From a virus, in the IMG/VR virus record IMGVR_UViG_3300033153_009397, positions 1-64,000 of that record: 64,000 nucleotides of DNA; one strand, 5' to 3'. The notes under the pieces are model-generated. The model was not told where the DNA came from and ran no database searches. It worked only from the letters and a program-made list of their open reading frames with translations. Below, one piece after another: positions 3,776-58,239 of the stretch (the first letter of the stretch is position 1; the number at the start of each line of letters is the position of its first letter). The translations under genes were made by a program, and so were the position numbers.

Positions 3776-5047
3776 TCATATTGTTGCTGAAACAACTAAG
3801 TTCACATTTATCTCAGTCACTTCAAAGACTGGAACTATAGTTAAATCACATCTCATGATATGATTCACTTCATCGGTAGATGAAGCAAAAACATTCACGG
3901 CAAATTCTTTAATCATCCCTTGAGATACCATTTGCCTAAGAGTGCTTTCCACTCTTGACTTTGCTGTTGACCGACCTAATGAAGTATTATTTGAAAACAA
4001 GAATGGTAAGAGTGTATTTCTTGTTCTCTTGGCTGCTGTGTCTGCTATTTCACGAGTAGTCAAATAAGAGAAGTCTGAACCAGCAGCAGAAAATGTCCAT
4101 CCTTTATCAAACATATAAGAGACAGATGCACCAGTACTCCACCTTCGTGGAAATAGAACATGGTCATCGCTCATACTTTCCATATCAGCCTTTTTGAGTA
4201 CTGCTTTAGTAGTACTACCACTCCATACGGGGGTAAATCCTAAAGATTTCAAAGGAACATGTGGTTGCATAGCAGCACGTCTACCAGCTAACCAAGCAGC
4301 TAACCAGTTACCACCAATTTCCACACTCCCAGAAGCAAGAGAAAGAGCAGCCAGATGGGTATCAGAAACATCATAAACAACGTTTCCAAACTTATGAACA
4401 GTATTACCTACTAATGTGATTGTTCTTCCATAATCTGATTTTGCTCCAGCATAGCTACTTAAATCATAAGTAGTTCCACTGAACACTTCTTGATAACTAA
4501 CTCCAGTAATATAGATTCTTTCTTTTCCATTATTCACACTGGAAGCAGTTTCCATCTCCGTAGTTACAGCAGAAATAGGAGGTTTACCAGCTATTACAAC
4601 ATAATAAATATCATCAAACTCTCTAAGTTTTGCAAGAGCTTGAGTTGTTCCCGTATCAGCACTAGTACCATACGTACCAGTTCCAGAGAGTACACAAGCA
4701 TAAACTTTGGACGCTCCACCAAGAAAGGCCAATTCTACGGCTCTGATAAGATTAGTTTCATTATCATAGGCTCCAGTACCAAAAGTAGTTTGACTATAAG
4801 TTCCAGCATCCCAAGAACCAGAAAGAGCTAACCCGCATTTTTGTACAGCGTCAATAAGGTTATTCCAAACGAATACCTCACCTTCATTAGAAGCACTCCA
4901 TTTTTCGGCATCATTGATATTATAACCACTTGAGCCACTTTGCATATGTCCAATAACTGCTACTGCTCCAGTAGTTGTAGAAGGAGTAGGAGCTATACCT
5001 CTCGTGGTTTCTGTAATGAATATACCAGCGAGTTTATGTGTTGACAT
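3776..5047 (-). CDS. Contractile tail sheath protein
   Basis: N-terminal AGIFITE..T..AVIG; C-terminal REIAD...FLFSNN...VESTLRQM..GMI..F.V....CDLTIVPV..V..I, a sheath C-terminal signature. Confidence 0.88.
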   Translation of the reverse strand: MSTHKLAGIFITETTRGIAPTPSTTTGAVAVIGHMQSGSSGYNINDAEKWSASNEGEVFVWNNLIDAVQKCGLALSGSWDAGTYSQTTFGTGAYDNETNLIRAVELAFLGGASKVYACVLSGTGTYGTSADTGTTQALAKLREFDDIYYVVIAGKPPISAVTTEMETASSVNNGKERIYITGVSYQEVFSGTTYDLSSYAGAKSDYGRTITLVGNTVHKFGNVVYDVSDTHLAALSLASGSVEIGGNWLAAWLAGRRAAMQPHVPLKSLGFTPVWSGSTTKAVLKKADMESMSDDHVLFPRRWSTGASVSYMFDKGWTFSAAGSDFSYLTTREIADTAAKRTRNTLLPFLFSNNTSLGRSTAKSRVESTLRQMVSQGMIKEFAVNVFASSTDEVNHIMRCDLTIVPVFEVTEINVNLVVSATI

Positions 5048-27647: not shown

Positions 27648-29771
27648 TTAAAACTCTCGCTCATAAACAGCGAGAGTTTTATTCGATAAATCATAGAAAT
27701 ATAGTTGCTCTTCATAGACATCATTTGTTTCGTCGTAGATTTTACGATAAATTAAGACTGAAGTCTCAAAATTCTTGAAACGAACAGTCTCTACTGTCGT
27801 AGGTATGCTTGAAGTAGATATAGTTTCTATTTCACAATTACCCGCTAACACAGTGTAGCGGTCTGTTCTGAAGTACAAACTTCCAACGCCATATTCGAGT
27901 GTGATATCGAACTCGAATATATTATCCTCCTCATAAAGAAGAGCCCAAATTTTTTGTTTTTTGTTCATTTTAATATCCTCTTTTATTTGTTCACGGGTTT
28001 TACTCTATAATCTGGTAATTTATTTACGAAATGCTTAAAAGCATAGCTCTGAATGTTGTAAATCTCATCTAAACACTTTTGTGCTGAATGAAATGCTGAA
28101 TGAAAGGGTATTCCATTCTTTTCAATGTACAGAATACCGTTTTCAATTCTAGCTCTGTACTCGTCGTAGTCTAAAAGACTAAAGAAAATATTAATTATAT
28201 TCTGGTCTGTTCTAGACCAACCCTTACATGACATGACTTCACGTTTTGTGTGATTTAAAGTTAAGATTTCAGTACTAAAGTGTTGAATAGACACGATTGT
28301 GTCGTCGCCACATTCATAGATTGTAACTACAGCGTCAGTTTGTGCCATTTTTATACCTCTCCTTTATATAGTTCTTGTATTCTTCTTCTTGCTTCTCTTC
28401 ATATTCTTTCCATTCAACAGTTTTGTGTAGTAAGTCTATGAGTGATATAAATTCACTATGTCGTTCTCCTCTATCTGTTATTACTAAATAAACTCGTGAT
28501 TGGGGTCTTTTAGCGATATCAAGATTAACATAGACGTCCCATCCTCTACGTCTCAAATAAGAGATATTTTCTCTTATTGATTGTCTCAAAATTTCAGTTT
28601 TACTTTTTTTCACTTATCTCACCTTTTATTACTTTTGTTATCTATTGACACTTTCTTGCAAAACTATTTAAATATAACGCATAAGGAAACAAGGAAACAG
28701 TTTCCTTTCATAAAACCCCTTTGTTTCCTTGTTTCCTTGCACTAAATCGATAAAAAAAGATTAAAAACTATAAGATGTTTTTCAGATGTCTTTGTAGGGG
28801 TGTCCTACTGCACTTTTACAGCTAGAACAAATAAGCTGTACTGTCAAAATACCGTCGCTATCACAATCTAGTGTTATCAAGTAGCTGTTACTGTCGTCTC
28901 TCTCGTCTTCCTCAATCTTACAATATTCACATTCACAAAAATGTCTTACTTCACTCTCAAACTCAATGTTGTACATCCCATGAGTTTCAGCGTTGTATTT
29001 AGCTCTTATCTTTCTTACTTCATCAGCTTGCTCTCTTGTTATTCTTTGAATATTGTAACAATTAGGACAAAAGACTGCATTGTAGAAAAGACTTACTTCC
29101 ATTTTGCTACTGCACTTTTTACATCTCATTCTTGTATCACTCTCTTATAGCTATCAGAAACTAAAGCTCCGCATGTTTGGCATTCGTAAGCATCGAATGC
29201 AGTAGTGTAACAGTTATGTTTAACGGCAATAGCCATAATCCCATTTTTAGCGGGATACATTGGAACACCACAACGTAAGCACAATGGGGGACAATGTCTT
29301 GGTATATTTGAAACCTTAATAGTTCTCAAGCTGTTCCATACTACTTTGTACATTGGAAATGTCCCTTTACTCTTATCTGGATACTTCTCTTCATCCATGT
29401 ACTTATTAGTCTCTGTTATTATCTCTCTGAATATCTCATCGAATTTTCGGCTTCTCTCGTTACTATCTTCGATTTTTAACAATTTAATGTTTTCTTTACA
29501 GAATATTCTTATTTCGTTCATTCTTATTCCTCCTTTAGTGTAGATGAAAAAAAAGGTTAAAAAGTTACTTTGTAACCGTGTTGATTACTTCTAATGTAAC
29601 TTTTATCTCCGCTGGAACTTGTTTAAAAGCGTTCTTCCTAACGTATAGTCCTCCTACTACTGTAGGTTTCCCGCTTCTTATTTGTTCTTGATATCTGTAA
29701 CAGTTTGTACTTTCTTTTTCTATCTTAATGAAAGTCAAAACTTGTTTTTCGGTCTTTGGTGTTGTGCTCAT
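27648..29771 (-). CDS. Small hypothetical ORFs (27648-27968, 27983-28348, 28335-28613, 28782-29129, 29126-29521, 29565-29771)
   Basis: Leftward operons downstream of elements B and C; several zinc-finger motifs. Confidence 0.6.
28682..28738. promoter_or_regulatory. Inverted repeat element B
   Basis: TAAGGAAACAAGGAAACA...TGTTTCCTTGTTTCCTT, 9 bp upstream of a leftward TATA. Confidence 0.8.
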
Positions 29772-30288: not shown

Positions 30289-30350
30289 TTCAAAACCTTC
30301 GATAACCCCACTATACTATATATATAGTGGCACTATCGAAAGCTTTGGAA
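30289..30350. repeat. Imperfect palindrome with a TA-rich centre in a 740 bp gene-poor region
   Basis: CCACTATA/TATAGTGG, TTCGATA/TATCGAA and TTCAAA/TTTGGAA arms. Confidence 0.6.
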
Positions 30351-35041: not shown

Positions 35042-38000
35042 TTAATCTATGCCAAGTTTCTTCTTGATTTTATCTATCTTTGTTTGTAATATTCTACACT
35101 TCTCTTTGGCATTTTTATATTTGAGATATGCATATGGAGGAGTTGGCTGTCTATCGCACCAATCATAACTAGCTAGCTGGTATCGAAGCTTGCTCTCTTC
35201 ATACTCTATTTGTAATTTAGACAATTTTCGTCGCAGAAAATATTTAGTCCAAATCATTTTCATTCACCATCATTCTTGTAACTTCTGTAGTCTTTTTTTA
35301 TTACTTCAAAATTTGAGATTTGACCTTGCAAGAATTTGCTTTCTTTAGGTTCTAATCCCGCTTTTAGAGTTTCATAAACTATCGTATCTACTTCTGCTGG
35401 TGTGAGATTTTTTGGGATTGTAACTTCTGCTACATGTTCATAATAGCCATTCTCTGTCCATAGAACAGTTACTTTCTCGGTCTTTTTTTCTTGGTTCATG
35501 ATTTGTGCTCCTTCAACATTTTCTCATAGCATTCAATGTGGTAATATTCTACTTTTCCTACATAGTCCTCAAATCCTCCTTCGAGCTCATTAGAGAAAGC
35601 TACATCCATGACTACTATGCCATAGGTTGTTTTTCTCTCCTTATTTAGATTTTTACCACATATTTTACATGGATAGTTCCATGTTATGGCTTCTATATTT
35701 GTAGAAGCTACTTCATTTATCGGTTTTTTGTCGTTCATTTTTCTTCATCTCCTTTTCTATCTCTTTTGAAATATTTTTATAGAAACATTCTTCATCGTAG
35801 TAATATGGATAGTTTAGGTCGAGAGGTATCTCTGATATATCTGGTAGGTTCTCACTATCGTATTTTGCTATCCATTCATATACTATCATTGCTTCTTCTC
35901 CTTCTTTTATTGGCTTCCCGCATTTTCTACATTCTTTCATTTTTCTTCACCTTCTTCTCTATCTCTTTTGAAATATTGTTTGAAGATAACTCTCTCTTTA
36001 CCGTCACAAGGTAGTTGTCCTATCCCGTCGATAAATCCTCCAGATACTGTTTTATATATCATTACAGCTTTGCCTTTTAGCTCATGGAATTCTTCAACAT
36101 CGAACATTCGCATAATATCGGTAACTAGCTTCATTCCATAGGGAGATACTATTCTCTCTATAAATTTCCCTCTTTCATCTTTTATTGGTTCGCAGAGTAT
36201 CAAACTTATTCCTTGTGCTCCTATCTCCAAGTCAAACACTATATGCATCGTGAAAAATTTTTCTAGTGATAATGAGACTTCAGTTATTCGGGCGATTTCT
36301 TTCCAAAAACCTTTCGAACCGCCCAGTGTTCTCTCTTTATTTAAATCCATGATAGTCTGTATATCCACATTAAAAATCTCTTCATGTCGTTGATTTATGA
36401 CCTCTTTCTGGTCATTTTTTCTTTCATTATTAGTCATCTTTTTTACCTTCTTTTTCTACTGGGACATAGCAACGAGCTGTTAAGGTCAAATCTGGTTCAA
36501 TATACATTTGATATATTTGTAGATTATCTAATTCCCATTCTGTTATTTGTCCTTCTTCAATTTCTGTTCTGATAAGTCCTTTTATCAAATTCAGTAAAGC
36601 AACAGATAGTTTGATATACTTTGTATTTGGTGTTTTGCAACGAAGACAATGATAATCATTTTCCATCTTGAAGAGTAGTGCTCCGCATAATAGGCAACTT
36701 TTTCTTTCTTCTATTAGATTATTCATTATTATTCACATTCCATTCTGCGAGTGACTTTGTTAGTTGGGGGCTTCTCGTTTGGTTCTTCATCTTGGTACAG
36801 CTCAATTCTCTTATCGGTCATTATGGGTATTTTTATATACTTCATTGTTCTTTCCTCTTTTTGTCGAGTTTCCAATCAACAAAAGCCATATCTATAGCGG
36901 TGTCTATATCAGTATCCTTACCAGAAGTGTTAAATACTTTGGCTACATAGTTTTCGATATAATATAATATATCAACTTGTTCTTTTGTCCTTTTATTCTC
37001 TGGGGTTTCACAAGCATTTATATAATCATTGAAGTGTTTAATTTTCTCTTCTTCTCTTCTTATTGTTTCATCTGTTATTGCGAAGTCTCTTTCTTCACCT
37101 TCATTGCGTTTGATTGCTTGTTTAAGCCATTCCATACTGCCATCTCTAATTCGTATTATATCATAATACAAATCTCTCGTTGTATAACAATATGAATATA
37201 ATTCTTCATTTTTTTCTTCATTGTCGGTCATGTTGATTTAACATGTACTACTATATTTTTAAACATTTTGGTCATATTCAAAGGTTGAAAAAAAAAGAAG
37301 GTTAAGATATAGATGTGAGATATCTTAAGCATTGAATATATGAGAAACGAAGTATCCTTCTTCTGACCACTGTAGGACATAAATTCTTGTACCTTTTTTG
37401 ATTTCTGCATTAGCACAAGCCATATCATATTCATGTTCATCTTTATCGAAGTACCTTGTTATTTGTCCATTCCACTCTATTGTGCTGAACCATTTTCCAG
37501 CCCAACTATCGTTTGCTCCTATAAGTTTTCTATATTCTTTGTCTATTTCCCAAGCTAGTTCAACAGCTTTTCTATATATACTTCCTCCATACATATATCC
37601 ATAATCAGTAGTTTGTATTGAACTTGTGGCTACATCTCCATACTCGTTGGTTGGTTCTACTTCTATCCAGTCATACGTTTTATCATATCTCACTATATAT
37701 CTATAACCTTTTATTCTTGTTTCTGTCTCTTTTCCATCGTAGAGACATGCAAGTATTCTTCTTATTGTTCTTTTATCAGCCATTTTAAGTCACTGTATTT
37801 ACATGTATTTACATGTATTTAAATGTTTTGGAAAACATAAAAAAAAATAAAAAATTAGATTGAAGTAGGTTCGATAAGGACAATAATGATACTCCAATAT
37901 CCTTCTGGGGCATCATCAAGAATATCAACGCTGATTAAGTCCATGGTATAGTCTTTTGCTATCTTATTAGCTGTTTCCATGAGATAGTAAGCTGATAGCT

Positions 38001-39906: not shown

Positions 39907-40067
39907 CTATTTCATATTTAACGGCTGAATTTGATAGTATTTCTATCAGAAGGTATGTAGCCTCTTCATAGTTTTCTACTTCCCATTCATTGATGGTTTT
40001 CCATTTGTCATTATCTCTTTCTAATGCTTTGATAATCATTTGTTTTCACTTCTTTTCGATTTCTCGG

Positions 40068-40487
40068 TCATTCTGATTTCATCTCTTCTAATTTTTCGGT
40101 TATTTCTTTCTCTATTTTTGGTAACCTTGTTTTTATGGTATTATATTCTCTCATAAGTGATACTATGAGCGGGTCTGAAGTATCTATTTTCCCCCATCCG
40201 TTATCTCTACTTGCTTTAACTCTTCGTAAAAATCCATGTATTTTTTGATGACAAGCGTGGCATAGTATTTGGCATTGTTTCATTTCTTTCTCTATTTCTT
40301 CTATTTCTTTTCCTTTTACTATCATTGTAGCAATGTTATTTTCTTCATCATATCTTGGTATTGGGTGATGTAATAAAAGTTTCTTGGTATAGCTACCACA
40401 AAATAGACAATTTTTTCCTTTTTTGAACTCCTTAAGGAGTTCTAATGACACTTTTCTTTTTAAAACACTTTTGCTTATCTCGGTCAT
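40068..40487 (-). CDS. HNH endonuclease-like protein
   Basis: CLFCG...LHH...CQILCHACHQKIH. Confidence 0.75.
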   Translation of the reverse strand: MTEISKSVLKRKVSLELLKEFKKGKNCLFCGSYTKKLLLHHPIPRYDEENNIATMIVKGKEIEEIEKEMKQCQILCHACHQKIHGFLRRVKASRDNGWGKIDTSDPLIVSLMREYNTIKTRLPKIEKEITEKLEEMKSE

Positions 40488-41328: not shown

Positions 41329-41958
41329 ATGATGAAAATGACCGATAAAGATATTTTTTCGAGATATCTTCACCCAACAAGGTCTCAACACATTTTGTTG
41401 GGAAATAAGGAGAAATTAAGTGTGGGGGAAGTGGCTAGTCTCTTAGGGAAATCGGAAAATAGAATTAGACAGATGATTAATGATGGGGAGTTATTAGCAG
41501 ATAAAGTAGGTAGAAGATGGGAGGTTTATTCTTTTCCTCTTCTTGAAAAACTATCATCTTTTAAAAGACTGTTAAGAAAAGCCAAGATTGGAAGATTAAA
41601 CTCAGAGTATTATAGCAATATGTGGTATGCTAAAATGGATGAAACCTTCATTGAATATTTCATCTTTGATGATTTAGGAGATTCTGTTGAAAGAGTAATA
41701 AAGATTCATTATCTACGAATTAATGAGGCTAATGTTTCTGCTCAGTATATAGTTCCTTATTGTTCTATGACTATCACTTATAGTCAAGGAATTCCTATTG
41801 TTTATACTATGAGTCAGAGGTGGAATGTAGACAATAGATTTGATAATTATCCCAATAAGCTTATCAGTCCTAAATGGATGTTGTTAAGTTATTATTTGAT
41901 AAATGTGTACTTGATGTCTGAAGGTGAGAAACATGCCAATTGTGATAGTAAAAGGTGA
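41329..41958 (+). CDS. HTH (excisionase/MerR-like) DNA-binding protein
   Basis: LSVGEVASLLGKSENRIRQMINDGELLADKVGRRWEV. Confidence 0.8.
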   Translation: MMKMTDKDIFSRYLHPTRSQHILLGNKEKLSVGEVASLLGKSENRIRQMINDGELLADKVGRRWEVYSFPLLEKLSSFKRLLRKAKIGRLNSEYYSNMWYAKMDETFIEYFIFDDLGDSVERVIKIHYLRINEANVSAQYIVPYCSMTITYSQGIPIVYTMSQRWNVDNRFDNYPNKLISPKWMLLSYYLINVYLMSEGEKHANCDSKR

Positions 41959-46602: not shown

Positions 46603-46881
46603 TCATTTTTCAATGATTTTGTTGAACCTTAGTTTATTGTCGAAGGTACGTAGAATAATTGTGTCTTGAAGAAGTTCAAAAATAAGGGAAGAGTATCGTT
46701 TACCTCTGAAATAAGTATGAGGGTTCATAGTGAGAAATGCTTTTTTCAATTCTTCATGAGTTAGAGAACCCTCTCTTCGAAGAATAAAAATAATACTATT
46801 AATAGCAGCACGTTTATGGATAAACTCCATATTTCTACTAATATAAACTTCATTATTTTTGTATGGCAAAAAAATCATCAA
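46603..46881 (-). CDS. Small wH-like protein downstream of PolB
   Basis: ILRREGSLTHEEL pattern; overlaps the PolB stop. Confidence 0.45.
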   Translation of the reverse strand: MMIFLPYKNNEVYISRNMEFIHKRAAINSIIFILRREGSLTHEELKKAFLTMNPHTYFRGKRYSSLIFELLQDTIILRTFDNKLRFNKIIEK

Positions 46882-49800
46882 CTTGTGTATTAATTATTTT
46901 CTTTTTAGGCATTGTATCTTTTACTGGTTGTATTAATTGTTTAAAAACATTATTGAGTCTTTTGATATATTCTTGGTAGTCTAAATCCCTTTTTTTGGCT
47001 ATTTCTATGGGTTCCACGCCTAGTATTTTATTATCCATGGACGGTTTATCAATGACGTAAACAAAGTCGATAAATGAGCCTTTTCTCATGATGATATTTT
47101 CATCAATAGGATGTTTACTGGATGATTGAATAGCTTCAACTAATTTTTTGGCAGCACGAACATGAGGAGCTCTTTGTTGAGTATATTTAGAAAGAGGACG
47201 AGAAAGCTGTTTAGTAATCTTATAATCTTCAATACTGCCATGTTTTAATCGTATACCTCTAACAAATTTATCTCTAATGGCAATAAGATTGAAGTAAAGT
47301 TCTTTAATTTGCTCGGGACGGTTAAATTTTTCAATGGCTGCTATCCACTCATTGAAAGCTTGCTGTATGATGAGAGGGGTATCTCTCTTCTTGCCAACTA
47401 ATCCTTTAATTGTTTTATGAAGCTTACCGTCTTTTTGTTCAATAACTACATAGTTTTTCTTTTTATGCAGTACAAGTATTAAGCCCGTTTCTTCTATATC
47501 TATGTCTACATCATATTTTTCACTAATTTTTGGCTGCATTGTTTCTTTAAAGTGATTTACATCTAAACCTTTAATGAAAACACTGTCGGTATTATGTACA
47601 ATTAGTTCTCCCACCCCAGCATGAAAATGATGGTTGTAAGTTGTAAGGTCGTATACATTTTCTTCTTCTTCTCTTAATAGTTCTATTTTTTTTATTTTTG
47701 TTGAGGAGTATCTTTGGTTGTTATTTGATATATTAAGACGAAATATATCTAATTTATCTCTTCTGGTATTAATAGAAACTTTATATCCTATTGACTTGGC
47801 GAGAAAATAGAGTCCTTGAGCTCCTATTTTACCTTTAATATCACATCTTAAGGAACCACTTTTTTTATCTCCATCCCCTCGATAATATCCTTCAAAGAAG
47901 GCTTTTTTTATCTCCTTTTTGCTATTAAGTATAATTGAAGGTATTTTCTTGTAACCATCTTCTGTGTATAAACTTAGATAGATTTTTACCATATCTTTTA
48001 TGTTGCCTTTTGGTATAACTCTATATATTTTCGTACTCTTTCTGATATCTATGATTTTGAAGTCAGTAAAATGTCCGTAGACTTTGAGTAATTTCTTTTT
48101 TAATTCCTTCATTAGTGGTAAATTATTTTTTCCTATATACCAAGAGTATTTTGTTCCCCATTTGGTATTATAAATACCACAACTACCATCGGCAAGAAAT
48201 AAACCCATTATCCAAGCTTCGTCTTTGGAAATATAATTCATGTTACTTTTTATTTCTGGAAAAGAGTGTAAAAGTTTATCACCAATTAGTATCTCAGAAG
48301 GTCTAACTATATTATTATTGGGTTTTAATAATGAATGGTCTTCTGTAACATCTACACAACCAGTATGAGTTAGTATTCTATAAATTTTCTTTTTGGTTTT
48401 GTGTTTATGTATTTTTAGAATTCTTGTCCAACCTTTTTCTGTCCACACTCTTAGATTTTCTCTAAATTCATGGTTTTCTAATTCTTTTATTGGCATGATT
48501 TCTATGTAACCATCTAAGTTGGTTATTATTGGTGTATCTGCTGTTACACTATCTCCATAGAATACGGTTAAACCTTCTGCTTCAAATGTTTCTTTGATGC
48601 CAATAAGGGTATCTCGTCCAGTGGCTGTTACACACTCTGCAACTGGACCGCAGAAAAAGGGGAAAGATTCAAAACCAGCAACTCCATAACTGGCATTGAT
48701 GATTACTTTTAGCCATTGTTCAATAACTTTGGCTATAGCATTAGTATTTTTCATGGGCTTATAATAGTAAACTCTTGCATCCTTGATGAAACCAACAACT
48801 GAAGGAAAGAGACCAATGTATTTGGTACAAACTTGATGATAAGCACCTTCAGAAACTTTTATTTTATTATCTTTACATTCTTCATGACCACAATTCATTG
48901 TAGTATAACATAAGTTATGGTTTACAATCATGGTGGGATAAAGAGAGGCTACATCAGCAACAATAATATCGTAGTGTACTCCTTTTTCCGGCTCAATGAC
49001 TATTGCTCCTCCATATCTCTTACCAGTGGTTGAAGCGGAAAGTATTTTTCCTATTGCACTTAATTCAATACGAGAAATGGCTAACATGTTGTAGAAATGA
49101 AGGGCACGATAGAATATATTTGATATAATAGCCGAAACTTGTCGTCTAACAGCACTTTCTACTGTTAAATGACCCATCCTCATTGCCATACAAATAAGTT
49201 TCATTACTACTTCATTGTCAAAAGTAGCCAGTTTTAAGCAAAGAGATGTATCTTGAGCATTGTAATATAGTAATTCTTGCATACAGAGGTCTGTTACTCT
49301 TCCTTCATAGTCATATTTTGTCTCTCCTATGAGTTCTTTTGATACATCATCAAGAGAGTTTTGTTTGTATTTGTTTTTAAAAGCGTAATTTTTAATGCTT
49401 GGATTAGAAAAGAATGGATAAAGGTCAATGAGGAACTTGTCTTTCAATCCTTTTACTATGCGGTCTTTTTTCTTATATGTTCTATCTTCATCTTCTGGTC
49501 GCATAAATCCCCATATTCTACTATCATAAATTCCCAGATATTTCATTCTGGTGACAATATAGGGAATATCAAACATATCAAGGTTATATCCTACCACGAA
49601 TTTTTGTTTCATAGCAAATAAGAATATCATAAATTTCTTTAGGAGTTCCACTTCATTATCACATATTCTAATAAGATGATTAGGATGTTTGAGGTTAAAT
49701 TTTTTGACTTTTATTTTTCTGACCTCATCTGATATAACGAATGATAGGTGATGAATATCATCTCCTTTGTACCAACTCAAGGTAATGGAAGAAATAGGTG

Positions 49801-50482
49801 AAACCGCCTCAAACGAATTTAAGGCATCTCTAAAGTTAAAATCTATTTCGATATCTAACGCTACCAGATGCTCCTTAAATTGTGGGAACGGAGTAGTGAA
49901 GATACTCATCATCCAATCATACATTTTTTTTGGTAGTTCTTTTTTGTATCTTTCTATTTGTTTTAGATTATAAATAGGGTGATGTTTTACATGGTACCAA
50001 TCAATCTCTGGAGATATAGTTGATATATTATAAGGCATACCAATTGTAATATTATGTTCTATGTTAAAGAGGTCGGCATATTTTATATGGTTGTTATATA
50101 CGAAAGTAGGAAGCAAAAGTTGACTTAGTCCAGTTCCAGTATCTCTATCTGTAACATATCTAGGTTGAGTAACTATAACTTTGGTTACCTTCATTTTTTT
50201 TCGTGTTCTGGGATGAATTTTATCTACTTCTTCACATCCTATAACTTTTTTATTGTTCCAATATGGTTCTCCCCGTTCATTTAGTTTAACATATCCACAT
50301 TCTCTTACTTTTTCGATGTTTAAGAGCTGTGATTCTTTTAATCTGGTATAAAAATAGGGTCGGTGAGATTTTCCATGCGGTATCTCGGTTAATTTTCCAG
50401 TTTCATCATTCCAGAAGATTAATACTTGTCCCGTTCTGCTTCCTTCTTTATTATATTTAGTGCTTATCAGCCATTCGGTCAT
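46853..50482 (-). CDS. polB: Family B DNA polymerase (PolB1-like) with an intein
   Basis: Exo motifs DIE, YNLDMFD, YNAQD; polymerase motifs DVASLYPT, KVIINASYG, YGD|TDS, KKNY. Confidence 0.96.
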   Translation of the reverse strand: MTEWLISTKYNKEGSRTGQVLIFWNDETGKLTEIPHGKSHRPYFYTRLKESQLLNIEKVRECGYVKLNERGEPYWNNKKVIGCEEVDKIHPRTRKKMKVTKVIVTQPRYVTDRDTGTGLSQLLLPTFVYNNHIKYADLFNIEHNITIGMPYNISTISPEIDWYHVKHHPIYNLKQIERYKKELPKKMYDWMMSIFTTPFPQFKEHLVALDIEIDFNFRDALNSFEAVSPISSITLSWYKGDDIHHLSFVISDEVRKIKVKKFNLKHPNHLIRICDNEVELLKKFMIFLFAMKQKFVVGYNLDMFDIPYIVTRMKYLGIYDSRIWGFMRPEDEDRTYKKKDRIVKGLKDKFLIDLYPFFSNPSIKNYAFKNKYKQNSLDDVSKELIGETKYDYEGRVTDLCMQELLYYNAQDTSLCLKLATFDNEVVMKLICMAMRMGHLTVESAVRRQVSAIISNIFYRALHFYNMLAISRIELSAIGKILSASTTGKRYGGAIVIEPEKGVHYDIIVADVASLYPTMIVNHNLCYTTMNCGHEECKDNKIKVSEGAYHQVCTKYIGLFPSVVGFIKDARVYYYKPMKNTNAIAKVIEQWLKVIINASYGVAGFESFPFFCGPVAECVTATGRDTLIGIKETFEAEGLTVFYGDSVTADTPIITNLDGYIEIMPIKELENHEFRENLRVWTEKGWTRILKIHKHKTKKKIYRILTHTGCVDVTEDHSLLKPNNNIVRPSEILIGDKLLHSFPEIKSNMNYISKDEAWIMGLFLADGSCGIYNTKWGTKYSWYIGKNNLPLMKELKKKLLKVYGHFTDFKIIDIRKSTKIYRVIPKGNIKDMVKIYLSLYTEDGYKKIPSIILNSKKEIKKAFFEGYYRGDGDKKSGSLRCDIKGKIGAQGLYFLAKSIGYKVSINTRRDKLDIFRLNISNNNQRYSSTKIKKIELLREEEENVYDLTTYNHHFHAGVGELIVHNTDSVFIKGLDVNHFKETMQPKISEKYDVDIDIEETGLILVLHKKKNYVVIEQKDGKLHKTIKGLVGKKRDTPLIIQQAFNEWIAAIEKFNRPEQIKELYFNLIAIRDKFVRGIRLKHGSIEDYKITKQLSRPLSKYTQQRAPHVRAAKKLVEAIQSSSKHPIDENIIMRKGSFIDFVYVIDKPSMDNKILGVEPIEIAKKRDLDYQEYIKRLNNVFKQLIQPVKDTMPKKKIINTQVDDFFAIQK
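47591..48550 (-). mobile_element. Intein (320 aa) with an in-frame LAGLIDADG domain at the YGD/TDS site
   Basis: Starts SVTADTP; VTEDHS; GLFLADG and EGYYRGDG; VYDLT; ends HN followed by Thr. Confidence 0.95.
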
Positions 50483-51745: not shown

Positions 51746-52113
51746 TTAAGGGATTTGGTCTAAGAAGTGAGAAATTTCATCGGTTTTTTCTTGGATTTTT
51801 CGCTGGTAATAGGCTTTTTTACCACGACTGGTAGTAGTTCTGCGAAGCTCAAGATAGCCGTCTATTTTACCTACTAAGTTGCGTAAATGATGTACGTAAC
51901 CTCGTACTTCATCACGAGTGTAGGTCTCCCTCGTCATTTTTTACCCTTTCTTTGTTTTTTGTAGTGTTCATCAATTCGTTTGTTATATTCATCGATAAGT
52001 TGTTCTGCCGCTTTGGGAAAGGCTTCTCGTTTTTTTCTCAGCTCTTTTGCTAATTGCTCAGAGGACATCTTTTTAATTTTTTCTTGGTCATCGACATCTT
52101 TATTGTAACTCAT
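51746..52113 (-). CDS. Two small helical proteins (51934-52113, 51746-51937)
   Basis: GGTGA RBS before 52113; ATGA coupling. Confidence 0.55.
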
Positions 52114-52123
52114 CTAATCACCA

Positions 52124-52194
52124 TGCATAAGGAGGTTTCTGGGCAAGGAAATGACCGAGAACCTTGCCTCAGAAGAATTAGCTGCACTTACGCA
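52124..52194 (-). ncRNA. Structured RNA (sRNA or 5' leader) with a 13 nt loop UUCUCGGUCAUUU
   Basis: TATA 29 nt upstream; 8 bp outer stem with a G-U pair on the minus strand; 12 bp inner stem with one bulge. Confidence 0.6.
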
Positions 52195-52239
52195 ATATAC
52201 AAAGGGTACCGAACTATTTAAATTTATTGATGTAGAATT

Positions 52240-55200
52240 TTAGATGTAATAATTGGGGTCAGAAACAAGTCTCTTAAAAATAAGTTCTCCATCTGTATTT
52301 TTATGCCAAGTTATACCAAAATGAGAGAGAAGATTAGGGATGGCTCGAAGTTCGCCAAGAAAGTCTCTTCCAAGATAAAGTTCTTTCTTAGCTCTGTTCT
52401 CAGTAAGCTGTTCATGTTTCTCAAAGTATTTTACAAATCTAACAAAGCGGTCATCTAGCAGAGCACCAAAACGTAACCATGCTTTGCCTATTTTAATGAA
52501 CTCTTTATTCATGCCACGACTAGAGATACCTCTGTATTCTCGCATTTTTGCTATGTGGGGGATAGGGACATCTTCATCCATTTGAATAATTTCCATGACT
52601 TTATTATAAGAGATACCCCAACAATAAACCAAGCTCTGTTCCTTAGCTGATGGGTCCTTTACTCTTCCTATTGTTTGATAAAACGTTTGATGCATATTCA
52701 TTTTCTCTAACATATCTGATAGTTCAAAGGCATTCAAGTCTTGAAAAAGTTCTTCTTCATGATAATATCTTGCTAACCATAAATGGCTACCTTTGGGGGG
52801 AGCTGGAGGACATGCAGCAATCATTATTCTTTTCTTGCTTCCTACTCCTACAGTTTTATCTGACCTATACCATGTTACTTCTAAGTTATAAGGAAGATGT
52901 TTTTGTCTTTTCAGTGTCTGTATAAGACGATAAATAAACCTTTTATTGGGAAGTACTAACATGACATTCTCTGTTCCGTGAGCTTCGCAGACCATGTTGA
53001 CAAATTTTATTAAATCTTCTATGTGTTTTTGACTATTAGGGTGTTTGTTTAGCTGTTTAGCTGATACATTTCTAACACCACAAATAACTAACTGATTATC
53101 ACAAGTTTTTCTGGGGTCTCCTATGACAAATCTCTTAAAATCTACTCCAAATACATCGCTTATCTTGGCTAAAGGCATAGTAGCATCAGTAACAATAATT
53201 TGGTTCTTGAAATGTTCTACAGTCATTTTTACAAACTGTTTAGTCATGTCTATCTTGGGAGTGGTTGTGAAAACTACTGAAGCTGGTTTATCTGGTGTAG
53301 GAGTGCTTTGCATCCACCAAGATTCATTCTGTAATAATACTAACATTCTTTCCAGACTATTAAGGTGAATATTAAAGTCTTTAGCATACTTACTAATCAT
53401 TGCATAATAAGAGAAGAAGTTTTCTTTATAATTACTTAACTCGGAAGGGGATAAAAAATTGCCTATTTTGTAAGTAGTAGATTTCTCAAAGATACCATTC
53501 AAAGCCGCCCTTCTAATAAACGGGTCAAATTTATTTATAAATTCGTCTGCTAGTTCAACTATCTTATTTATAGTTTGATTGTTATATTTCTCTATGAGCC
53601 TAGCTACATCTTGTGAGAGTTCATAAGTGTAATCAAAGAATTTTTCTCCCACTTCATTCTGTTCATATACAGTTATTTCAAGGGGAGAAGCTTGAACAAG
53701 CTTGGAAATTTCATCCATGAAAACGATATCAAAAGAGTTGTATAAGACACTGACAAATTCTTGAGCTTCTTTTTCTACGTTACTAAGAAGTGAGGTAAGC
53801 TTGTCATATGTTATGAATACTATGTCATAATCCATAATCCTTTCCATGATTGTTCTGTAAGCACACTTACCTACCTTTTCTCCTATCTGATACAAAGCAT
53901 GGTCATGTTCAGAGACTATGATAGGTATTGGATATTCTCCTTCTCTATGAGGATACTCAAATACCTCTTCATAATATTCACAGTAACGATACTCGCTACT
54001 CCCCGACTGTGCCACAGCACAAGACGGTTTAGATTGGAACATCATATTTTTCCATTGCACTCCTTCTTCTCCCCAATTAGGATTTTCTTTTTTCTTCTTC
54101 TCTAAATCCATGAGAGTAAATCTAAGTTTTAAACAAGCCTTCATATTAGCTGATAATACTGCTCCTTCTATACTCTCTCCATATATATCATATATAAGCC
54201 TCATTGCATCTACAAATACTTCTCTTGCTATTCTGTTGGTAGGGGTTACTACTAACATTCTCTTGCCATGAAATGTTGCTGCTCTAATAAGACTGGTAGT
54301 AAAACCAGCTCGAGTAGTCTTTATGGCTTCAAAGTTGGTGGTAGGATTTCTAACTAACTCACTGACTAATGATGTAATAACTTCAAACTCATGTTCTGAG
54401 GAAGCAAACTTCTCTTTCTCTACAGTTACTACTGATTTGGGTTTGGGAAACATACAATAACTTCTTCTACATTTGGCTGCATCTTTTGGTGTACAGCAAT
54501 AGAATTCACTTTTTTTATCTTGCATTTTATCGCAGTGTGGTGGCATATCTGGTTGGTCTGGATTTCCATATGTCCATGCTACAAGTTGTATCTTATCTTT
54601 GTTTTGTGGAGTATTATCTTCCTCGTCATTTACTACAAATCTTATAAACAATGCACATTCATCTGGCGTATATCCCTTCCCTCCAAAATCGTCATACCTC
54701 ATTGCTCCTAAATACCTAACCAGTATCATTCTCATCCAGTGGTCTCTTCTGTTTATCCAAGCATTTCTTATGCATGGAGGTGTATCAAATGGGTCTGTTC
54801 TATTGACAAGATTAGTCATCTCTTGTAGTAATGCTTTTTGTTCATCTGTTAAAATGGTATTTGGTTCTGGTACCATCACTTCATATTCTGCATGGCCTTT
54901 TCCTTGATACGGTCTTCTTACTACTATCTTTGCTGTTTCATGCATTACCTCTTTGATTATATCTTCAAACTGGAATTCTTTATAGTATAGAGGCTTTATC
55001 TTTAGATATTTATATTTACTATATAGTATTGTTCTTGTAGCATTCATTTCTCCGTTGTCGTATTCTACTGGGACACAGTAGAATGTTTCATATGATAGCT
55101 TGGTATATACCGTGTATGGAAGTCTGTAGACGTGTCTTCCTCTCTTGTACAAAGAGGTATCAATGATAATGAGGTATTTGATATTATCTAATTCTATTAT

Positions 55201-55788
55201 TTTTCCTATTCCTTTTTTGTTTCGTTTATTCTTTGGTAAAGGAGAGTTCTTGGCATTAAGCATAAAGAAACCTTTACATCTGCTACTACATCTATGTATC
55301 TTCCCCATTCTGGCATATTTTTTCTGTTGAATACATTCTTCTAATATTCCTTTTTCTCCCCATAATATATCTATAAAGTCTGCCTTATCTACCTCTTTAT
55401 GATATCTTTGTACTCTATACATTCCTTGTCCAGTAATGTATGATGTCCACTTGTATTCTGGATGTTCTTTATCCCATTCATTCCAGAAGTGTATGGCTGC
55501 TCGTAGTTTTAATTCCCTTATTTGATTAACTGTATATTCTTCTTCGATGTATGGAGTTAATATTTCTACATCTGTATCTATTACAAAATCAGTATGACCA
55601 TGTCCTTCTAAGGTTCTAAACAATGGCTTGTTGGTATTTATGCCGTATCTATCGAAGATATCTTGCCATTGATATATCTCTTCTCCTCCTTCCTCTTTTC
55701 TTCTTCCCATCGATATAGCTTTAGCACCATCTAATAGCCTAAGCACAACATCATTGATTTGTTGTAGTTTATTTTCTACCTCGGTCAT
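52240..55788 (-). CDS. Primase (PriS-like + PriL-like)-SF2 helicase fusion
   Basis: VIDTD, TGQG, IDTSLY..YRLPYT (AEP); PPC..H..R..PPHC..C (PriL Fe-S); TRAGFT, MDE, DAT, QTIGR (SF2). Confidence 0.72.
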   Translation of the reverse strand: MTEVENKLQQINDVVLRLLDGAKAISMGRRKEEGGEEIYQWQDIFDRYGINTNKPLFRTLEGHGHTDFVIDTDVEILTPYIEEEYTVNQIRELKLRAAIHFWNEWDKEHPEYKWTSYITGQGMYRVQRYHKEVDKADFIDILWGEKGILEECIQQKKYARMGKIHRCSSRCKGFFMLNAKNSPLPKNKRNKKGIGKIIELDNIKYLIIIDTSLYKRGRHVYRLPYTVYTKLSYETFYCVPVEYDNGEMNATRTILYSKYKYLKIKPLYYKEFQFEDIIKEVMHETAKIVVRRPYQGKGHAEYEVMVPEPNTILTDEQKALLQEMTNLVNRTDPFDTPPCIRNAWINRRDHWMRMILVRYLGAMRYDDFGGKGYTPDECALFIRFVVNDEEDNTPQNKDKIQLVAWTYGNPDQPDMPPHCDKMQDKKSEFYCCTPKDAAKCRRSYCMFPKPKSVVTVEKEKFASSEHEFEVITSLVSELVRNPTTNFEAIKTTRAGFTTSLIRAATFHGKRMLVVTPTNRIAREVFVDAMRLIYDIYGESIEGAVLSANMKACLKLRFTLMDLEKKKKENPNWGEEGVQWKNMMFQSKPSCAVAQSGSSEYRYCEYYEEVFEYPHREGEYPIPIIVSEHDHALYQIGEKVGKCAYRTIMERIMDYDIVFITYDKLTSLLSNVEKEAQEFVSVLYNSFDIVFMDEISKLVQASPLEITVYEQNEVGEKFFDYTYELSQDVARLIEKYNNQTINKIVELADEFINKFDPFIRRAALNGIFEKSTTYKIGNFLSPSELSNYKENFFSYYAMISKYAKDFNIHLNSLERMLVLLQNESWWMQSTPTPDKPASVVFTTTPKIDMTKQFVKMTVEHFKNQIIVTDATMPLAKISDVFGVDFKRFVIGDPRKTCDNQLVICGVRNVSAKQLNKHPNSQKHIEDLIKFVNMVCEAHGTENVMLVLPNKRFIYRLIQTLKRQKHLPYNLEVTWYRSDKTVGVGSKKRIMIAACPPAPPKGSHLWLARYYHEEELFQDLNAFELSDMLEKMNMHQTFYQTIGRVKDPSAKEQSLVYCWGISYNKVMEIIQMDEDVPIPHIAKMREYRGISSRGMNKEFIKIGKAWLRFGALLDDRFVRFVKYFEKHEQLTENRAKKELYLGRDFLGELRAIPNLLSHFGITWHKNTDGELIFKRLVSDPNYYI

Positions 55789-56358: not shown

Positions 56359-56380
56359 AAATGATAGGGATAATATTAAT

Positions 56381-56450
56381 TTGCAAAGTGCAGAGGATGG
56401 TTACTTCGTAACTGACATGTGAAATTGCCCATCCTCAATTATCTTGCAAC
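56381..56450 (+). ncRNA. Y RNA-like RNA 1, upstream of TROVE
   Basis: TATA at 56354; stems TTGCAA/TTGCAA and GAGGATGG/CCATCCTC; shared AGTGYAG and GGTTACTTCGT. Confidence 0.7.
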
Positions 56451-56483
56451 TGTTTTTATAACAATTTGCAAGGAGGAAAAAAA

Positions 56484-58079
56484 ATGAAATATAATGAAAA
56501 AACAGAAGGAAAGAGTAGAGAAATAAACTATATGGGAACAAATGCATATAGGTTAGATAATAGAACTCGATTATTGAACATTGTAGGAACTACATTTGTA
56601 GCAGAGCCTACATATTATGAGTTGGATGATGTAAAAGAAATCATAGAGATGTGCCAGAAAGATAAGAGTGAATTTATTCTACAGTTAGCGGCATATGCCA
56701 GAAATGAGCTTTATCTACGTAGTGCTCCTACATTGTTACTGGTTATTGCAGCAAATATAAATGAGACTAAGCCATTAGTTCGTAAGTATGCTACTAAGAT
56801 TATTAAAAGAGTAGACCAAATGACTGAGGCATTAGCAATGCAGTTAGCATTGTTTGGCAAACCCATTCCTAACTCATTAAAGAAAGCCATCGCTAGTGCC
56901 TTTATTACTTTTGATGAATATCAGTTAGGTAAGTATAGAGCTGAGGGAAAGAAGGTTACTCTCAAGGATGTAGTTAAACTATGTCATCCAGCGGCTTACA
57001 AGAAAGAGGGCTTAGACTTAGCCAAGAAAATTATTGATGAAACACTTGCTACTCCTTATACATGGGAAACAGAGATGTCTACTAAGCCTAATGAAGATAG
57101 AGGCAAACTTTGGGATGAATTAATATCATCTAATAGACTTGGATATATGGCAACCTTGAGAAATTTGCGTAATATGATTAAATATAGAGTTACCAAGATT
57201 TCAGAGGTAGCAAATTATATTAGTAATGAAAAGGCAGTCGCTCATTCTAAACAATTTCCTCATAGGTATTTGAGTGCTCACCAGATGTTAAAAGAGTATC
57301 TCGAAAAGAAAGAAGAAGGAATTGTATTTGAGAAGGATGAACTTCCTATTGAAAAAATAGAAACTTTATTAGCAGCCATCAATAAAGCCACCGTCATTGC
57401 AGCGAATAAAAATATTCCTAAACTTCAAGGAAAGACTGCTATATTAGTTGACAATTCTGGTTCAGCTAGAGGAGATAGCGGGGGACAATCCAAGATTAGT
57501 CATAAATCTATTAGAACCATGGCAGACGTTGGTAACCTCTTGGGATTATTGTTCTGGTATGTATCAGATGATACTTACTTTGCTGTATTTGGAGATAAAT
57601 TACTTCAAGTAGACCTCGATAGACATGCTCCTTTCTTGGACAACTTTGAAGCTGTCAATGAATTGGGTAATAAGGCTGGAAAATGTACTGAACAAGGAGT
57701 ATTTACTTTCTTGAAGAATATCATTCATGATAAGGTTCATGTTGATAGATTGATTGTTTGTTCAGACCTACAGATAGGGGATGGTCGTAATTATGCCTAT
57801 GGTCTTGATAGGTTTGAGACCAACATTGAAACAGTTCCTAAGCTCGTGCAGAAATACAGAGAAGAAGTTAATCCAGACTTTATGTATTATTCTGTCTGCT
57901 TCAAGGGATATGGTAATGATGTAGTCATGGGTGAGAAGAAGGTTCTTATCAGCGGTTTCAGTGAAGGTATACTCAAGTTTATTCCATTCTATGAAAAAGA
58001 TAAGACTACTCAAATCAAGTATATCAAAGAGAACTTTGGTTTAGATGTTGAAAAGGTTGAGGTCAATAAAAACGTTTAA
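56484..58079 (+). CDS. rsr: Ro60/TROVE-domain RNA-binding protein with a vWA domain
   Basis: YARNELYLRS, FDEYQLGKY, LKDVVKLCHP, TWET, YMATLRNLRN, SKQFPHRY, DNSGS, SDLQ; AGGAGG RBS before ATG 56484. Confidence 0.93.
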   Translation: MKYNEKTEGKSREINYMGTNAYRLDNRTRLLNIVGTTFVAEPTYYELDDVKEIIEMCQKDKSEFILQLAAYARNELYLRSAPTLLLVIAANINETKPLVRKYATKIIKRVDQMTEALAMQLALFGKPIPNSLKKAIASAFITFDEYQLGKYRAEGKKVTLKDVVKLCHPAAYKKEGLDLAKKIIDETLATPYTWETEMSTKPNEDRGKLWDELISSNRLGYMATLRNLRNMIKYRVTKISEVANYISNEKAVAHSKQFPHRYLSAHQMLKEYLEKKEEGIVFEKDELPIEKIETLLAAINKATVIAANKNIPKLQGKTAILVDNSGSARGDSGGQSKISHKSIRTMADVGNLLGLLFWYVSDDTYFAVFGDKLLQVDLDRHAPFLDNFEAVNELGNKAGKCTEQGVFTFLKNIIHDKVHVDRLIVCSDLQIGDGRNYAYGLDRFETNIETVPKLVQKYREEVNPDFMYYSVCFKGYGNDVVMGEKKVLISGFSEGILKFIPFYEKDKTTQIKYIKENFGLDVEKVEVNKNV

Positions 58080-58103
58080 ATATGATGTATTGTATATTAT
58101 TTT

Positions 58104-58186
58104 AGGCAGTGTAGAAAACGGTTACTTCGTTAAGACGACACTAACTAATGCCGAAAGGCAGTTCCCGTTTTCGACTTACCTCCAAC
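58104..58186 (+). ncRNA. Y RNA-like RNA 2, downstream of TROVE
   Basis: TATA at 58075; stem GAAAACGG/CCGTTTTC; GNRA hairpin TGCC-GAAA-GGCA; same conserved motifs as RNA 1. Confidence 0.7.
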
Positions 58187-58239
58187 TTACTTTTCTCATA
58201 GAGATAAAGTGAAAAGATAAAGTGAAAGATGTGATAAAT

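Follow-up and report, generated by a model that had tools for sequence, protein, structure and literature searches.

The stretch of DNA analysed here (the window) comprises the first 64 kb of an IMG/VR virus record that is 80,003 nt long and has a GC content of 34%; CheckV puts the completeness of this record at about 49%. Besides a primase-helicase-like protein, the virus encodes a TROVE/Ro60 protein, a family B DNA polymerase (PolB) with an intein and an N6/N4 methylase. The PolB gene (46853-50482, minus strand) is split by the intein, which comes with a LAGLIDADG-like domain. Relatives of the 1182-aa primase-helicase-like protein are unannotated proteins from metagenomes and from Thor-/Lokiarchaeota MAGs, and one of them sits in a Promethearchaeota MAG. 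The nearest protein relatives found were P0002 and P0003 for the primase-helicase (68-71% identity) and P0042 for Ro60 (77%). Since primase-helicase relatives occur in Asgard MAGs and Ro60 has been reported from Nidhogg-type Asgard viruses (bioRxiv 10.1101/2021.07.29.454249), the gene content points to an Asgard-archaeal tailed virus as the likely source.

The locus of interest is the 126-nt gap on the minus strand between the stop of the primase-helicase gene (52240) and the ATG of a 59-aa ORF (52113). Its features and neighbours are as follows.

52240-55788, minus strand: primase-helicase-like gene, 1182 aa, leaderless, start ATGACCGAG at 55788
52215-52222, minus strand: TATA box TTTAAATA, directly 3' of the primase-helicase stop (viral consensus TTTAAAT[AG])
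52187-52194, minus strand: predicted transcription start zone and 5' arm of the terminal stem, UGCGUAAG (from TATA spacing and fold)
52182-52189, minus strand: AAGUGCAG, overlapping the 5' arm of the terminal stem (same TATA offset as in the Ro60-upstream Y RNA)
52162-52174, minus strand: 5' arm of the hairpin, UUCUG, bulged A52169, GGCAAGG (from sequence and fold)
52149-52161, minus strand: 13-nt loop UUCUCGGUCAUUU, exact complement of AAAUGACCGAGAA (unpaired probability at least 0.90)
52137-52148, minus strand: 3' arm of the hairpin, CCUUGCC, CAGAA (from sequence and fold)
52124-52135, minus strand: CCUCC, then 3' arm of the terminal stem, CUUAUGCA (52124-52131; from sequence and fold)
51934-52122, minus strand: Shine-Dalgarno sequence (SD) GGUGAU (52117-52122) and 59-aa ORF (51934-52113), with an SD spacing that fits other GGTGAT-led genes
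51746-51937, minus strand: 63-aa ORF, coupled to the 59-aa ORF by an ATGA overlap

Promoter and transcript

TTTAAA[AT]N boxes are common in this virus. In 15 called genes, 19-25 nt (mostly 21-24) separate the end of the box from the ATG, and these genes are therefore leaderless (examples in the window start at 5047, 11972, 17533, 21444, 37231, 40487, 55788 and 62011). The same leaderless TATA architecture is found in the two relatives described below, G1 (12 genes) and G2 (11 genes). With the TATA spacing of the 15 leaderless genes as a guide, the hairpin RNA is predicted to start at 52194-52191, 21-24 nt past its TATA box.

The first-pass annotation had proposed a free-standing small RNA at this place. 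The locus does have its own TATA box, but no terminator was found, and the folded region runs into an SD-led ORF. Indeed, the order on the minus strand is TATA box (52222-52215), hairpin, then GGUGAU-UAG-AUG of the 59-aa ORF at 52113, and no run of four or more T occurs either between the hairpin and this ORF or within it. Because of this lack of a T-tract terminator, we take the hairpin to be the putative 5' leader, of about 77 nt, of the SD-led 59-aa ORF rather than a terminated sRNA. Such a leader is unusually long for this virus, in which first genes are otherwise leaderless or have short SD leaders.

At three places, about 27436 (plus strand), 28675 (plus strand) and 34825 (minus strand), a TATA box is closely followed by a repeated motif, GGAAACAAGGAAACA or its complement, which might be bound by a regulator or form the 5' end of small RNAs.

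Folding of the leader

Read from the sequence, the minus strand forms two stems: an 8-bp terminal stem, in which 52187-52194 pairs with 52124-52131, and a 12-bp hairpin with a 13-nt loop. Folding of 52119-52194 gave a minimum free energy of -23.7 kcal/mol (z = -2.2). In four contexts of 76-295 nt, pair probabilities in the stem were at least 0.91 and unpaired probabilities in the loop 0.90-1.00, so that the two-stem fold with an exposed antisense loop, placed by the first-pass annotation after a minus-strand TATA box, is borne out by sequence, fold and accessibility. The hairpin ranks ninth in strength among the 194 local hairpins of the 80-kb record and is one of only 11 that are intergenic. 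The strongest hairpin of the record, also intergenic, lies at 30297-30341 (-21.3 kcal/mol; bulged stem of 18 bp, AUAUA loop).

No Rfam family matched the window at gathering threshold, and at E values of up to 10 nothing meaningful appeared around the hairpin locus or in the corresponding loci of the relatives; ARAGORN called neither a tRNA nor a tmRNA.

The loop complement at gene starts

The 8-mer ATGACCGA, which is the core of the loop complement, occurs eight times in the window against 0.81 expected, in agreement with the earlier estimate of about one chance copy; none of 100 shuffles reached eight, and the remaining 16 kb of the record contain no copy. Of the nine TGACCGA copies, eight have an A in front of them. 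The seven copies outside the hairpin, each of which had been placed at an ORF start, are all in-frame ATGs followed by an open frame, those at 36821 and 40071 opening mini-ORFs. One copy opens the primase-helicase gene; the others are listed here.

50475-50482, minus strand: ATGACCGA at the PolB start (loop duplex -13.9 kcal/mol)
41338-41345, plus strand: ATGACCGA at the third Met of an HTH/excisionase-like regulator (ORF start 41329)
40480-40487, minus strand: ATGACCGA at the start of a leaderless HNH endonuclease gene (loop duplex -16.7 kcal/mol)
40064-40071, minus strand: ATGACCGAGAA at an 11-codon mini-ORF, in ATGA overlap with the HNH stop
37224-37231, minus strand: ATGACCGA at the start of a leaderless 129-aa ORF
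36814-36821, minus strand: ATGACCGA at a 30-codon mini-ORF

The seven starts lie within at most 19 kb, in a span that includes the hairpin (permutation P=0.005). Those at 37231, 40487 and 55788 are found 22-24 nt past a TATA box and are therefore mRNA 5' ends; the one at 41338 lies 9 nt inside a leaderless mRNA, and those at 36821, 40071 and 50482 are internal, without a promoter. All five of the ATGACTGA starts that had been proposed to pair with the loop through G-U were located as well (30811, 31816, 39903, 40639 and 44296).

Part of this pattern has a protein-level origin. Threonine is about twofold enriched at codon 2 over gene interiors in this virus and in both relatives, so that part of the motif can be put down to a general preference at N-termini; genomes G0 and G2 have many MT[DE] starts. 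Codon choice was examined at the same dipeptide: ACC accounts for 13% of internal ACN-GA codon pairs and for 5 of 12 starts under a strict definition, or 7 of 13-14 under a loose one (p about 0.01-0.0005). The codon-controlled comparison asked for by the first-pass annotation thus came out in favour of the starts. The enrichment of ATGACCGA at starts exceeds an amino-acid preference, which leaves the choice of ACC unexplained. We rejected the idea that MTE is an add-on to PolB: the relatives likewise have two residues between M and W.

One reading of the motif is that it acts as a DNA site, either an operator or an initiator element of leaderless promoters, the copy in the hairpin being an inverted site that lies past the promoter at 52222. 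Predicted leaderless transcription starts, 22-24 nt past TATA, do coincide with three or four of the seven sites; the conserved core is sharply the 8-mer, and conservation does not extend into the flanks; and the copies cluster in one module that includes a gene for an HTH regulator. We nevertheless regard a DNA site as improbable, given that the copies at 36821, 40071 and 50482 are internal and promoter-less, that the motif is neither palindromic nor repeated nearby, and that all eight copies are in frame with an ORF-opening ATG, a pattern that a DNA site would not require and that this reading leaves unaccounted for.

The eighth of these ATGs opens, within the loop, the 30-aa plus-strand ORF (52151-52243) that the first-pass annotation had pointed out and that is indeed present. 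Were ATGACCGAG on the plus strand the true start of a protein gene, the hairpin would be its translational context. Three things speak for such a gene: the other seven 8-mer copies each open an ORF, the frame stays open for 30 codons (about 10% by chance, as we estimate), and there is an AAGGAGG upstream. This AAGGAGG is, however, 15 nt away from the ATG, as opposed to 6-10 nt (at most 13) for real SDs in this virus, and 12 of the 19 AAGGAGG copies are not SDs. There is no TATA box 21-24 nt upstream, and no plus-strand promoter fits the viral consensus. The ORF moreover opposes a 10-kb block of minus-strand genes and crosses their promoter, has no PHROG match, and has no ATG in the equivalent loops of the two relatives. 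A plus-strand gene is, on this evidence, highly improbable.

Pairing of the loop with gene starts

When the loop alone was hybridized in silico with windows spanning -10 to +15 around gene starts, the strongest duplexes were those with HNH (-16.7 kcal/mol), primase-helicase (-15.6), PolB (-13.9) and the ORF at 37231 (-12.1), and most targets offered the loop only an 8-10-nt core. Duplexes of -11 kcal/mol or stronger were obtained with 9 of 126 start windows (7.1%), compared with 0.9% of internal windows. Since any loop that contains CAU favours starts, we shuffled everything in it except CAUUU: the start preference of the real loop was matched in only 1-3% of these trials.

As a rough estimate, the chance that the loop of an intergenic hairpin matches the top start 8-mer is below about 1%, considering that there are only 11 strong intergenic hairpins, that the probability of an 8-mer match is about 1e-5 and that a few alternative motifs were allowed for. 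A scan of viral contigs with the 15-mer of the loop returned 118 unrelated matches, mostly at MTEN starts of GC-rich phages, and none of them had the stem.

Conservation in relatives

All relatives that were fetched are distant. Among them are L002 (G1, 79 kb, with terminal repeats) and L003 (G2, 85.6 kb), whose primase-helicases share 43-44% amino acid identity with that of the window. In these two, the primase-helicase stop is directly followed by a TATA box, and a hairpin occupies the corresponding position. Stem pairs were counted from the individual folds, since MAFFT did not align the three hairpins in structural register. Read from the loop outward, the inner stem is GC GC AU AU CG GC GC in the window, GC GC AU AU GC AU GC in L003 and, after a closing UA, GC GC AU GC AU GC GC in L002. 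Three of the seven positions are thus changed on both sides and none is broken. The hairpin is a real and structurally conserved element, and it very probably acts at the RNA level.

The loops behave otherwise. They measure 13 nt in the window (UUCUCGGUCAUUU), 9 nt in L003 (UCUGGUCAG) and 14 nt in L002, where the loop is AU-rich. CAU (anti-AUG) is missing from the loops of both relatives, and the complements of these loops do not occur at their own gene starts (the L003 loop was checked in G2); the L003 loop retains GGUCA, the complement of UGACC. The first-pass annotation had suggested looking for conservation of the loop and its covariation with start motifs. The outcome is negative, in only two hairpin-bearing relatives and at 43-44% amino acid identity, which makes it a weak test. 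G2 contains exactly three copies of ATGACCGA, all at gene starts, one of them that of an orthologue (25% amino acid identity) of the window's HTH regulator, and no complementary loop was found in its 85.6 kb; the start motif can therefore persist without this RNA. The surroundings of the hairpin differ as well. In L003 it is directly trailed by U6, which resembles a terminator, and in both relatives what comes next is a second TATA box with a leaderless methylase gene; the second promoter suggests that the hairpin is not always a leader. With its stem kept and its loops differing, the hairpin is an old structural feature, and the anti-start loop is lineage-specific at most.

These comparisons bear on the alternative that the conserved stem is functional and the complementarity of the loop is not, the ATGACCGA starts having a separate cause such as a preference at initiation or at the N-terminus. 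The stem could then stabilize the leader or the 3' end of the primase-helicase mRNA, act as a signal for processing or termination, or be the binding site of a protein. The compensatory changes in the stem, found alongside loops of differing length and sequence, argue for such a role, as does the terminator-like U6 of L003; G2, which keeps its motif starts without a matching loop, and the abundance of MT[DE] starts in G0 and G2 point the same way. Against it stand the improbability of a chance match between loop and motif, the clustering of the motif starts around the hairpin and the absence of a U-tract after the hairpin of the window. We give this alternative well under an even chance, which makes it nearly as likely as the antisense reading favoured below.

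Two other non-coding elements were noted after primase-helicase genes. The first, containing ..CGUUGUUUAUAAAGG..CUCCCAGC.., is conserved in four other relatives, L007 (11466-11575), L019 (758-880), L021 (593-715) and L023 (540-650), where it follows the stop codon. A second promoter and a structured leader are possible identities for it; as a homologue of the hairpin it was rejected on account of an unconvincing alignment. The second, L017:929-1030, is tRNA-like, with a T-arm GGGAUUCGAAGCCC, acceptor-like ends and UAUGACCGAG on the gene strand; neither ARAGORN nor Rfam called it.

Relation to Ro60 and Y RNAs

On either side of the Ro60 gene (56466-58079) lies an RNA with its own promoter, at 56378-56452 and at 58099-58188 (both plus strand); the two RNAs are clear paralogues. 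Both are Y-type RNAs with the signature AGUG[CU]AG ... GGUUACUUCG. This signature links them to RNAs of other viral Ro60 loci: AGUG[CU]AG occurs 106 times in 45 of 80 such loci, 105 times on the Ro60 strand, and the general layout is stem, AGUG[CU]AG, stem, (G)GUUACUUC, variable module, stem, U-rich strand, stem. A covariance model, R1, was built from 20 short family members and the Ro60-upstream RNA. It gave 50.9 bits for the upstream RNA, which was in the training set, and 37.2 bits (E=2e-7) for the downstream RNA, which was outside it; Rfam 15 misses both. A weak third match to R1 at 29070-29149 (plus strand; 17.4 bits, E 0.098) contains GCAUUGUAG...UUACUUC, has no stems and runs antisense to ORFs, and is unlikely to be a gene.

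The hairpin leader resembles these RNAs in part. It carries an AGUG[CU]AG-type motif, AAGUGCAG (52182-52189), together with a terminal stem. As the first-pass annotation had noticed, it also shares a 5' AAGTGCAG with the Ro60-upstream RNA; this sequence has four copies against 1.47 expected, which alone is not significant, and in both RNAs it lies at the predicted transcription start and is preceded by TTGC. These similarities raise the possibility that the leader is a degenerate third Y-type RNA, which would be bound by Ro60 through AAGUGCAG and the terminal stem and would use its loop as an effector module. AGUG[CU]AG is, after all, a signature of the Ro60-linked RNAs, AAGUGCAG stands at the same TATA offset as in Y RNA 1, the layout is alike (terminal stem, purine motif, long stem, pyrimidine-rich 3' strand), and GGUUCUCG follows the stem in place of the family's GGUUACUUCG. 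Yet R1 gives the leader only 1.8 bits, compared with 50.9 and 37.2 for the flanking RNAs; the GGUUACUUC that is invariant after stem 2 in alignment A6 is missing from it, GGUUCUCG being found there instead; and its global alignment to either flanking Y RNA is not significant. A published criterion for Y RNAs asks for a distance from Ro60 of no more than about 4 kb and for the strand of that gene (PMC4201824), whereas the leader is 4.3 kb from the Ro60 gene (56466) and on the opposite strand. Finally, L002 and L003 (G1 and G2) have the hairpin but neither Ro60 nor any Y RNA match. A third Y-type RNA is accordingly quite improbable, and the earlier proposal of a delivery by Ro60 loses its footing on the same low score and on the same Ro60-less relatives. 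That the leader would be handled by the virus's own Ro60 through AAGUGCAG as a mere handle, as an addition to the antisense reading, is hardly probable at all.

Discussion

The reading that we favour, tentatively and at somewhat less than an even chance, is that the match between the loop and the gene starts is functional: the leader, or an RNA derived from it, would mask AUGACCGA starts. Transcription would begin at the consensus viral promoter directly after the primase-helicase stop and would continue through the leader into a pair of small SD-led ORFs that precede the methylase-PolB block. The very stable core of the hairpin would display 13 unpaired bases, and the active form could be either the leader itself or a stable leader fragment shielded by the terminal stem. 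The loop would pair with AUGACCGA at the leaderless 5' ends of the primase-helicase, HNH, 129-aa ORF and HTH regulator mRNAs, and also with the internal starts of PolB and of the two mini-ORFs. Such pairing would occlude the start codon and thereby tune the translation of the replication and regulatory module. Starting from the observed fold, loop sequence, motif enrichment and clustering, and conservation of the hairpin, we infer a transcript that would accumulate and pair in vivo, with an effect in the direction just described. The broader proposal that an anti-start-codon loop joins the primase-helicase, PolB, the HNH nuclease and the HTH regulator in one post-transcriptional regulon is somewhat less likely still.

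Antisense sRNAs that mask translation starts are known from bacteria and from Methanosarcina mazei, in which sRNA162 masks both the ribosome-binding site (RBS) and the start codon (PMC4152357). The leader is like them in having an unpaired stretch complementary to several mRNA starts, and the predicted effect, an occluded initiation, is alike. It differs in that, lacking a terminator, it is an mRNA leader, and in that several of its putative targets are leaderless 5' ends and not RBSs. It also differs in being encoded by a putative Asgard virus and in showing no covariation of seed with targets in the two relatives available. An archaeal sRNA review has pointed out that regulatory motifs of leaderless transcripts would need to sit in the ORF or in the 3'-UTR (PMC4152357).

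A second comparison is with the Y RNAs bound by Ro60, namely the bacterial and phage YrlA/YrlB (PMC4201824) and the viral AGUG[CU]AG...GGUUACUUC RNAs. The terminal stem, the 5' AAGUGCAG, the long stem and the apical module of the leader are similar, and the same genome encodes Ro60 and two bona fide members of the family. The leader departs from them in lacking GGUUACUUC, in failing the covariance model, in its position on the opposite strand 4.3 kb away and in its presence in relatives that have no Ro60. The structured 5' leaders of phages and archaea, in turn, share with it the hairpin, the position between a promoter and an SD-led ORF, the strong fold and the compensatory changes; unlike them, it is followed in L002 and L003 by a second promoter and not by an ORF, and it has no known ligand or protein partner.

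In a limited literature search, we found no regulatory RNA described for viruses of Asgard archaea. If the masking of starts by the leader is true, the pairing of a loop with the first nine bases of an mRNA would be a simple way to control leaderless mRNAs, and the genes so controlled would form a viral replication regulon. Should the antisense idea fail, it still holds that a conserved and unexplained hairpin lies downstream of the primase-helicase gene in this group of viruses, and that the over-used ATGACCGA start is a real signal at the nucleotide level that needs an explanation.
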